From: Escherichia coli
Lineage (GTDB): Bacteria; Pseudomonadota; Gammaproteobacteria; Enterobacterales; Enterobacteriaceae
Strand: one strand, 5' to 3'
DNA length: 64,000 nucleotides
NCBI RefSeq assembly: GCF_003334355.1
Contig: NZ_QOWP01000004.1
In this document: in pieces, positions 58,801-61,800 of the stretch
Numbering within the stretch: the first letter of the stretch is position 1
Layout: every line of letters starts with the position of its first letter
Program-made: the position numbers

Positions 58801-61800
58801 AAATTGCCGCGCTCCAGTGATTCTCACCCACACCATTAAGCTGCGCCACCAGCGTTTTAACATCATAAATTTGCAGCAGTTTCTCCAGCATTGCCTGTGC
58901 GGCATTCCCGGTGCTGTATGAATCGGTTACTGATATATTTTCCTGCATAGATTTCACCGGCCATCTGAGATGGCCGACAGGTTAACATAATTACAGCCAT
59001 TTAGGGCCACGCGCTCAGCCAGCGGATGAAAACGCATCTATCACCTTGTGATCGACACCTTCATTCTCCCCCGCCAGTTCGGCACTGAGCTTCGCCATAA
59101 ACTCGACTAAAAAATGCGCGTTGTGCTGCGCCAGCTGCTTGCCTCTTGCGGTTTGCATGGTTTGCGGTAGCTTCAGCAACTTAGTCTGGAAATGATCCAG
59201 CGCGTAGCGTTTATCATCAAGCGGGCGATGCTGTGCGAGCGGATCTTCACCATCAAACAGCGCCACGCCCAATGCCCCTGAAACGGCAAACACGCGCGCC
59301 AGGCCAATCGCTCCCAGGGCTTCCAGCCGATCTGCATCCTGGACGATTTTAGCTTCCGTGGTTAAGGGGGCGATTTGCGCGCTGAAACTGTGAGCGGCAA
59401 TGGCATGACAAACGGCCTCAATTTTCTCCGCCGGAAATTGCACGAACTCTTCACGGAGCAGGCGACGCGTCTCTTCTGCTGCCAGGATTGAAGAACGCTG
59501 CCTTTGCGGATGATTTTTCGCCAGGCTCACAATATCGTGAAAATAACAGGCGGTTAAAATCACCAGCATATCGACGTCGTCATCTGCCGCCAGCTTCTGT
59601 GCCGTAGCCCAGACGCGGCGAAAATGACACACGTCATGGGCCGCGTCCTGGTGCTGATGATGGTTTTTCAACCAGTTTTCGAACTGTGCCTGCCAGTGTT
59701 GTAAGTCCATACGCGCTCCGTTGCCAAAGAGTAGCCACCTTAGCAGTTTTTATTCATAGCGTCTGCTACGTGCGGGACGAGGTCGGGTGTACCAGGCAAT
59801 GCTGCCTAACAATGCCCCGACCAGAGCCATAAATAAAAATCCGACCAGTGCCCCTAACCACTTTCCCGCGGTAGAGCCTAAATCGCTTTCAAATCCCGAC
59901 ACGGGGGCATCGGGGATCCGGCTCATCACCCAGATGTAACGCGCCATTGCCCAGACGAAATAGCCACACCATGTATAAAAAGCCCACAAAGCCAGTTTGC
60001 CACCAGGGCTGCGAGAGAGTCTCTCTTCCATCTTTGTCGAACCGTATTCCATTTTGAGATAACCCGGAAAATTCAGACTTAGTACTATTATGTGATAAAA
60101 GTCACATTTTTCCACATTGGATGAGCCAGTCAAGACTCACTCATTTTTTGAACAAATAGATAATTTTTGCGCAACGGCAGTGAATACAGGAAAAATCGTT
60201 TTGAGCGATTTTATTTATCTTTGATATCGGCTTTATTAATTCATTTAATCAATATATTAGCACTGATTACAATTATACCTTTTTATTATTCTGTGTCATG
60301 ATGCTTCCGTTATTAGCCTTTTATCGTCTTGTTTATATTTTTTGGGCCGGCATGATGCCGGCTTTTTTTATGCCTTCATTAATGTGCGCCTGATCACACC
60401 AGCCGTTTGGCGCAACAATCATTGATACCCCCTATGTTTCCGCTCAACTCATAACATATTGATATACATTTATAATTTTCATGAATATTTATATTTAGAA
60501 TTCATAATTCTGAATTATATTAAATAGATTAGAAACATTTTGAAATCTTTTAAATACATTTGTTACATGTAATCTTTAAAATAAAATGAACTTCATAGAA
60601 TAGTATCCAAATGTGCTTTTTTTTGGATAACGGCACTTATTGATATATTCATGAAGATTATAATCACAAGGGAATACATAATGAAAAGAAAAGTTCTGGC
60701 AATGCTGGTCCCGGCGTTATTAGTTGCTGGCGCAGCAAATGCGGCTGAAATTTATAATAAAGATGGCAATAAAGTTGATTTCTACGGCAAGATGGTTGGC
60801 GAACGCATCTGGTCAAATACTGATGATAATAACAGCGAAAACGAAGATACCTCCTATGCTCGTTTCGGTGTTAAAGGTGAAACACAAATCACCAGCGAAC
60901 TGACTGGTTTTGGTCAGTTTGAATACAACCTCGACGCCAGCAAGCCCGAAGGCTCTAATCAGGAAAAAACTCGTTTAACCTTCGCAGGTTTGAAATATAA
61001 CGAGTTAGGATCTTTCGACTATGGTCGTAACTACGGTGTTGCTTATGATGCCGCAGCTTATACCGATATGTTAGTTGAATGGGGTGGTGATTCCTGGGCT
61101 TCCGCTGACAACTTCATGAACGGTCGTACCAACGGTGTTGCAACCTACCGTAACTCTGATTTCTTTGGTCTGGTTGATGGTCTGAATTTTGCTGTGCAAT
61201 ATCAAGGTAAGAACAGCAATTGTGGCGTTACTAAACAAAACGGTGATGGCTATGCGTTGTCTGTAGACTACAACATCGAAGGTTTTGGTTTTGTAGGTGC
61301 ATATAGCAAATCTGATCGTACTAATGAACAAGCTAGTGACGGCTACGGTGATAACGCTGAAGTGTGGTCATTAGCAGCCAAGTATGATGCAAATAATATC
61401 TATGCAGCAATGATGTACGGTGAAACCCGCAACATGACCGTTTTGGCTAATGATCATTTTGCAAATAAAACCCAAAACTTTGAAGCTGTTGTACAGTATC
61501 AGTTCGACTTCGGTTTACGTCCGTCTTTAGGCTACGTATATTCCAAAGGCAAAGATCTTTATGCTCGTGATGGACATAAAGGTGTTGATGCTGACCGCGT
61601 AAATTATATCGAAGTTGGTACCTGGTACTACTTCAATAAGAACATGAACGTCTACACAGCATACAAGTTTAACCTGCTGGATAAAGACGATGCAGCGATT
61701 ACCGATGCCGCAACTGATGACCAGTTTGCAGTTGGTATCGTCTACCAGTTCTAATCAGCCAACTCGCCGCGGCGTGTTACTGTAAAACTTAACACTAGCC

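Follow-up and report, generated by a model that had tools for sequence, protein, structure and literature searches.

The subject of this analysis is a small RNA gene in the AT-rich spacer between drpB (formerly yedR) and yedS, within a stretch of 64,000 nucleotides (nt) of Escherichia coli DNA (contig NZ_QOWP01000004.1 of assembly GCF_003334355.1), referred to below as the window. We conclude that positions 60280..60369 of the plus strand very probably encode RseX, a small regulatory RNA of Escherichia that acts in trans and depends on Hfq. The original prediction had proposed RseX from map position only and had pointed to an Rfam search as the way to check it. This search, performed once with the region 56000..64000 against all families and once with the whole 64-kb window at gathering thresholds, returned a strong match to the covariance model RF01401 (rseX) over its full length (model positions 1-94 of 94), with 97.7 bits (gathering score 50 bits) and an E value of 4.1e-13. 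It was the sole Rfam match in 56000..64000, and the sole rseX match in the window. The feature can be considered to stand beyond chance because of this covariance-model match, and not because of a count of hairpins.

The second line of evidence is the correspondence with strain K-12 MG1655, whose curated record contains the non-coding RNA rseX (b4603; 91 nt; NC_000913.3, 2033649..2033739, plus strand) between drpB/yedR and the yedS pseudogene. The segment 60200..60420 of the window (221 nt) is identical to K-12 save for one T fewer in the terminal T-run, and the gene is 90 nt long in the window vs 91 nt in K-12, with 90 of 91 positions shared. Both loci have the same strand, neighbours, TACAAT -10 element, terminator hairpin and terminator loop, in agreement with the size of about 90 nt that had been predicted. 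They differ in the T-run (8 T in K-12, 7 T here, the latter being common to 10 of 17 other alleles of E. coli and its relatives) and in yedS, which is a pseudogene in K-12 and an intact, divergent allele in the window. The locus is thus RseX itself and not a mere look-alike, and it was already known, having been described in 2006, deposited in Rfam and included in the K-12 annotation. Its identity, family membership, anatomy, synteny, conservation pattern and in silico complementarity to targets were established in the present analysis. The parts of the gene are as follows.

60280..60369, plus strand: rseX gene (RF01401 match and identity to K-12 b4603)
60268..60273, plus strand: TACAAT, -10 element (sigma-70 promoter of rseX), 6 nt upstream of the start site known from K-12, with the same sequence as in K-12
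60291..60299, plus strand: conserved 5' block, RseX nt 12-20 (CUGUGUCAU), invariant
60300..60307, plus strand: RseX nt 21-28, variable, in the loop region of a weak 5' hairpin (allele comparison)
60308..60330, plus strand: invariant core, nt 29-49 (CGUUAUUAGCCUUUUAUCGUC) plus 2 nt, predicted target-pairing region (alignment)
60329..60343, plus strand: U-rich stretch UUGUUUAUAUUUUUU, presumed Hfq contact, directly 5' of the terminator
60344..60369, plus strand: Rho-independent terminator, stem-loop 60344..60364 followed by the T-run (terminator scan and fold)

The strong plus-strand intrinsic terminator of the original prediction was read at exactly the coordinates proposed for it. It consists of GGGCCGGCATGATGCCGGC (60344..60362) followed by exactly 7 T (60363..60369), with a G-C core at 60346..60362, a loop of 3 nt (UGA, 60353..60355), 9 pairs (6 of them G-C) and a folding energy of the hairpin of -14.3 kcal/mol. 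It was the one terminator-like site found in 59700..60900 (plus strand, 60344..60364), a count which is uninformative, as shuffled sequences are expected to contain 0.9. In a consensus fold of 9 sequences all 8 predicted terminator pairs were kept, and the sole compensatory change of the covariation analysis, from G-C to A-U in Citrobacter, was located at the terminator base. One E. coli allele has two C-to-U changes, which leave the pairs intact as G-U. The U-rich stretch at 60329..60343 is unpaired in both the single-sequence and the consensus fold, and together with the hairpin and the 7 U it provides all features of a 3' Hfq-binding module, Hfq binding itself being predicted. The T-run is polymorphic: among 19 alleles (the window and K-12 included) 7 T were found in 12 and 8 T in 6, and in allele L013 the first T of the run has been replaced by C, which interrupts it.

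The TACAAT motif, anticipated as a -10 element some 75-100 nt upstream, was read at 60268..60273, which is 71-76 nt 5' of the stem and 96-101 nt 5' of the end of the T-run. From the -10 to the start (60268..60279) none of the 12 sites is variable among 13 E. coli alleles, while in other species the element reads TAAAAT, TACCAT or TACGAT, with A2 and T6 retained. Among candidates for the -35, even the best ones (TTAATC at 60245..60250 and its neighbours) agree with the consensus in only 3 of 6 positions. For K-12, a sigma-70 promoter is supported by 5' RACE (rapid amplification of cDNA ends), according to the account given in PMC8313858, which cites Douchin et al. 2006. All defining features of RseX that are readable from sequence were found in the window, the exception being the promoter, which a consensus scan fails to call on account of its weakness.

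Conservation of the RNA was examined in two samples: a cross-species set, for which one genome of each bacterial species was scanned with a pattern, and an unbiased sample of 13 E. coli alleles, 12 of them distinct, obtained with the entire 547-nt spacer. Nucleotides 1-11 are variable in the cross-species alignment. The 5' block (nt 12-20) is invariant in 9 of 9 columns, both in the 10-sequence cross-species alignment and in the 13 E. coli alleles. It is followed by the segment nt 21-28, where 6 of 8 sites vary among the 13 alleles and the mean pairwise identity across species is 0.58. All 21 columns of nt 29-49 are invariant across species, which was in part imposed by the search pattern. In the unbiased sample the two conserved blocks jointly contain 1 variable site in 30, compared with about 0.19 variable sites per position over the 547-nt spacer as a whole; by binomial arithmetic, at most 1 in 30 at this rate has a probability of about 0.015. 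Such patchy conservation is what would be expected of a small regulatory RNA.

The neighbouring genes, listed below, keep their arrangement in other species. The pattern scan located rseX in E. albertii, E. whittamii, two other Escherichia species, one divergent E. coli and Citrobacter amalonaticus, and each of these six homologs is matched by the Rfam rseX model with 70.9-95.2 bits. In the window dcm-yedJ-drpB on the minus strand are followed by rseX-yedS-hchA on the plus strand, and the order dcm-yedJ-drpB / rseX-yedS(-hchA) is kept in 6 of 6 representatives of other species, including Citrobacter, although its DrpB is just 64% identical.

59750..60052, minus strand: drpB (formerly yedR), divergent upstream neighbour (open reading frame table; 303 nt in the K-12 annotation)
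60681..61754, plus strand: yedS, porin gene, co-oriented downstream neighbour (open reading frame and translation; intact allele of 357 amino acids)

The start codon of drpB has been corrected to the ATG formerly numbered 22 (PMC7648144), i.e. the ATG at 60052, with which the K-12 annotation agrees; because drpB starts there, the true spacer is 60053..60680 (628 bp) and not 547 bp. The earlier description of this spacer as AT-rich holds (GC content 0.23-0.37 vs about 0.5 in the flanking genes), but its extent of about 550 bp does not. The open reading frame map also confirms that the nearest upstream gene lies on the opposite strand. The rseX gene of C. amalonaticus (1944..2040 of record L003; 70.9 bits) retains the blocks nt 12-20 and nt 29-49, has 7 nt inserted ahead of the terminator, and shows UUU in place of UGA in the loop. 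With this different loop, the activity of the K-12 terminator loop on fepA, described below, may not be shared by Citrobacter.

The transcript, its Hfq dependence, its targets and its silencing by H-NS are known from published K-12 experiments with the identical sequence. RseX was characterized as a 91-nt RNA which lowers OmpA and OmpC (PMC7648144) and acts in an Hfq-dependent manner (PMC8313858, PMC11979758). Further targets under its repression are fimB and ihfB, with which it pairs close to the start codons (PMC8313858), and the 3' part of K-12 RseX (RseX+52) represses fepA through bases of the terminator loop, with a need for Hfq and RNase E and apparently without base-pairing (PMC11979758). 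The RNA is silenced by H-NS and StpA: it escapes detection in the wild type and is seen at about 91 nt in northern blots of hns mutants, de-repression being stronger in hns stpA than in hns (PMC8313858). In 7 of 8 conditions rseX lies within protein-occupied, silenced chromatin (bioRxiv 10.1101/2024.06.20.599902).

We searched for complementarity between RseX and the K-12 sequences of the target messengers. The best local duplex with ompA involved RseX nt 37-51 and positions -23..-7 of the messenger, a segment spanning its Shine-Dalgarno sequence (-17.5 kcal/mol, a value reached by 2 of 60 shuffles), and that with ompC involved nt 30-44 and positions -15..+1 (-16.6 kcal/mol; 1 of 60 shuffles as good). 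The seed complementary to ompA and ompC falls in the invariant block, of which nt 37-49 read GCCUUUUAUCGUC. These exact registers are predictions from complementarity. For the start region of yedS the best local duplex with RseX was no better than chance (-10.1 kcal/mol, 36 of 60 shuffles as good).

From these elements the following mode of action may be proposed. A weak sigma-70 promoter (TACAAT at 60268..60273, poor -35) would initiate transcription at 60280 and the intrinsic terminator at 60344..60369 would end it, to give an RNA of 90 nt, in which the U-rich stretch, the terminator hairpin and the U-tail would form the Hfq-binding 3' module. The single-stranded invariant core (nt 29-51, 60308..60330) would pair with the Shine-Dalgarno and start regions of the ompA and ompC messengers, block their translation and promote their decay, with less OmpA and OmpC as the result. 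Other regions of RseX would pair with fimB and ihfB, and the terminator loop would separately repress fepA by the route involving Hfq and RNase E, apparently with no base-pairing. The AT-rich DNA around the gene, silenced by H-NS and StpA, would keep it nearly silent under laboratory conditions.

Nothing counts against the identification of the locus as RseX. Several points nevertheless weigh against the wider reading of the locus as a working regulator with the anatomy and pairing described above. The promoter was not called by the consensus promoter scan, because its -35 matches in just 3 of 6 positions, and native expression of RseX is very low in published data. The fold of the whole RNA is no better than those of shuffled sequences (z-score of -1.33), and the 5' hairpin lacks covariation support among 9 sequences, a pair being broken in two alleles. 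The search pattern fixed 23 positions (nt 14-19, 22-23, 30-31 and 34-46), at which cross-species invariance is partly circular; for this reason variation was re-measured on the 13 E. coli alleles. As for the targets, the support from local duplexes is modest and applies to K-12 messengers, and the ompA pairing site of RseX has never been mapped experimentally (PMC8313858). Moreover, when full-length RNAduplex was applied to the RseX core and the ompA, ompC and yedS leaders, 93, 133 and 264 of 300 dinucleotide shuffles, respectively, were as good; these full-length duplexes were long and U:A-rich, and the windowed local search was used instead. Finally, of 5,426 complete E. coli genomes, 4,901 carry the 547-nt spacer and 525 (about 10%) lack it, which indicates that the rseX locus is dispensable. 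In one genome without it (L010; NZ_CP062851.1, 4100..4900) the first 99 nt of the spacer lead into an IS1A element with hiuH immediately behind it, rseX, yedS, hchA and hprSR being deleted.

MicA and MicC are Hfq-dependent small RNAs that repress ompA and ompC. They act at the translation-initiation regions of these messengers (PMC1804206). The sites predicted for RseX (ompA -23..-7, ompC -15..+1) lie in these same regions, and RseX resembles both RNAs in its proposed imperfect pairing at or near the ribosome-binding site of a porin messenger, its dependence on Hfq, and its Rho-independent terminator with a U-tail. It differs from them in sequence, the three being unrelated and assigned to different Rfam families, and the occurrence of RseX, as judged from the pattern scan, is restricted to Escherichia and some Citrobacter. 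Regulation also differs: MicA depends on sigma-E, but RseX does not belong to the sigma-E regulon (PMC1804206) and is kept silent by H-NS (PMC8313858). SdsR and ArrS, which are likewise unrelated in sequence, share with RseX the repression of fepA via the terminator loop with a need for Hfq and RNase E, but RseX behaves otherwise on the fepA StemComp variant (PMC11979758). The loop in the window is identical to that of K-12.

A loose end, and the sole one, is a promoter-like site on the opposite strand.

60272..60299, minus strand: sigma-70-like site, ATGACA, 16-nt spacer, TATAAT, 11 of 12 consensus positions (promoter scan)

Nowhere else in the window, on either strand, are 11 or more of the 12 positions matched. 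The site overlaps the rseX -10 and RseX nt 15-20, and its own -10 stands back-to-back with TACAAT. The evidence for a genuine signal is only suggestive, as sites of at least 11/12 also arose in 139 of 2000 shuffles (7%) of the AT-rich spacer. The site was considered as the mapped drpB promoter, and this was rejected, since the mapped promoter is located elsewhere; in the supplements of a preprint on bidirectional promoters there was no mention of rseX, yedR, drpB or yedS. We regard it as unlikely, though worth stating, that the site is a real divergent promoter firing from about 60265 towards drpB (as a long-leader isoform) and competing with, or occluding, the weak rseX promoter. If this were true, it would provide a second reason, besides H-NS, for the near-absence of RseX from wild-type cells.

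The same site lends itself to a further interpretation, namely that the conservation of 60268..60299 reflects a DNA element (a promoter, either bidirectional or antisense, or else a nucleation site of H-NS) and that RseX is largely a silent by-product. Such a view would accommodate the best sigma-70 match of the window lying there on the minus strand (60299..60272), the location of both its hexamers in segments invariant among E. coli alleles, the scarcely detectable RseX of wild-type cells, and the absence of the locus from about 10% of genomes. It leaves unexplained two features located outside the site, namely the invariant core (nt 29-49) and the preserved terminator, and it has to contend with the 7% of spacer shuffles containing an equally good site and with the drpB promoter mapped elsewhere. 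In addition, when overexpressed, the RNA acts on specific targets, which respond to mutation (PMC8313858, PMC11979758). We consider this interpretation very improbable.

To the alternative that the hairpin is an attenuator or pause site in a long 5' leader of yedS, with the TACAAT promoter mainly serving the porin gene, we assign hardly any weight. The two genes are co-oriented, 311 nt apart and always linked, hns mutants de-repress "RseX and surrounding areas" jointly (PMC8313858), and some read-through is to be expected at any intrinsic terminator. This terminator is, however, a strong one (9 pairs, 6 G-C, 7-8 U), and the fold of 60280..60700 (421 nt) revealed no anti-terminator pairing and did not go beyond shuffled sequences (z-score of -1.39); neither in this fold nor in that of RseX alone was there structure in addition to the terminator. 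Distinct promoter-like sites occur 3' of the terminator, at 60494..60521 and 60560..60587, and the complementarity of RseX to the yedS start region is at chance level. What mainly disfavours a yedS leader is the published mapping of the K-12 transcript: as far as PMC8313858 reports it, northern analysis and 5' RACE point to a discrete RNA of about 91 nt, and not to a hairpin within the yedS 5' untranslated region. Furthermore, the 90-nt RNA expressed alone works in trans (PMC8313858, PMC11979758).

That the RNA is the messenger of a small protein encoded by 60298..60393 (31 amino acids, MMLPLLAFYRLVYIFWAGMMPAFFMPSLMCA), a product which is hydrophobic and whose ATG lies at RseX nt 19, has next to no probability and was rejected by the present tests: the frame is not conserved among 19 alleles (6 of them have ATC or ATT as the start, lengths vary between 18 and 54 amino acids, and alleles with 7 T and 8 T differ in reading frame), the ATG has no Shine-Dalgarno sequence ahead of it, and the stop codon lies 24 nt past the terminator, which leaves the 90-nt RNA without one. 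As a minor qualification of the expectation that no protein-coding frame precedes the terminator, plus-strand frames of 31-44 amino acids occur in the spacer, but none of them ends before it.

With RseX retained as the identity of the locus, a number of observations may be added on its surroundings. The yedS ATG at 60681 is preceded by AAGGGA and lies 311 nt 3' of the rseX terminator. Its product here is intact and ends in ...VYQF, similarity to the K-12 DNA is lost between 61211 and 61740, and YedS proteins are only 52-60% identical among the species sampled; YedS appears from these comparisons to be a hypervariable surface protein encoded beside a conserved small RNA. The region upstream of yedS is extremely AT-rich (23-25% GC) and contains a 30-nt tandem direct repeat (60507..60536/60537..60566, 73% identical) as well as several short palindromes around GAATTC/TGAATT at 60493..60519. 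The repeats and palindromes within 60493..60587 could be binding sites of a regulator or of H-NS. Elsewhere in the window, Rfam matches comprised C0465 RNA (111.6 bits), DsrA (102.5 bits) and three tRNA genes, with listed coordinates of 510..587 (plus strand), 51791..51877 (minus strand) and 18814..19113 (minus strand); these are consistent with the region of the E. coli chromosome at about 1.97-2.04 Mb.

To conclude, the positional guess from which this analysis started is supported, although as a discovery the locus matters little, RseX having been known since 2006. It should nevertheless be noted how easily rseX can be missed in strains other than K-12: RefSeq automatic annotation placed no feature under the spacer in any of 25 sampled complete E. 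coli genomes, and among the records examined the gene is annotated only in the curated K-12 record. The predicted ompA and ompC registers, both within the invariant core, offer a concrete mutational handle on a pairing site that is unmapped in the literature. As the allele of the window is identical to that of K-12 save for the T-run, the published targets (ompA, ompC, fimB, ihfB and fepA) and the silencing by H-NS should transfer to it, and we infer that the strain from which the window derives behaves like K-12.

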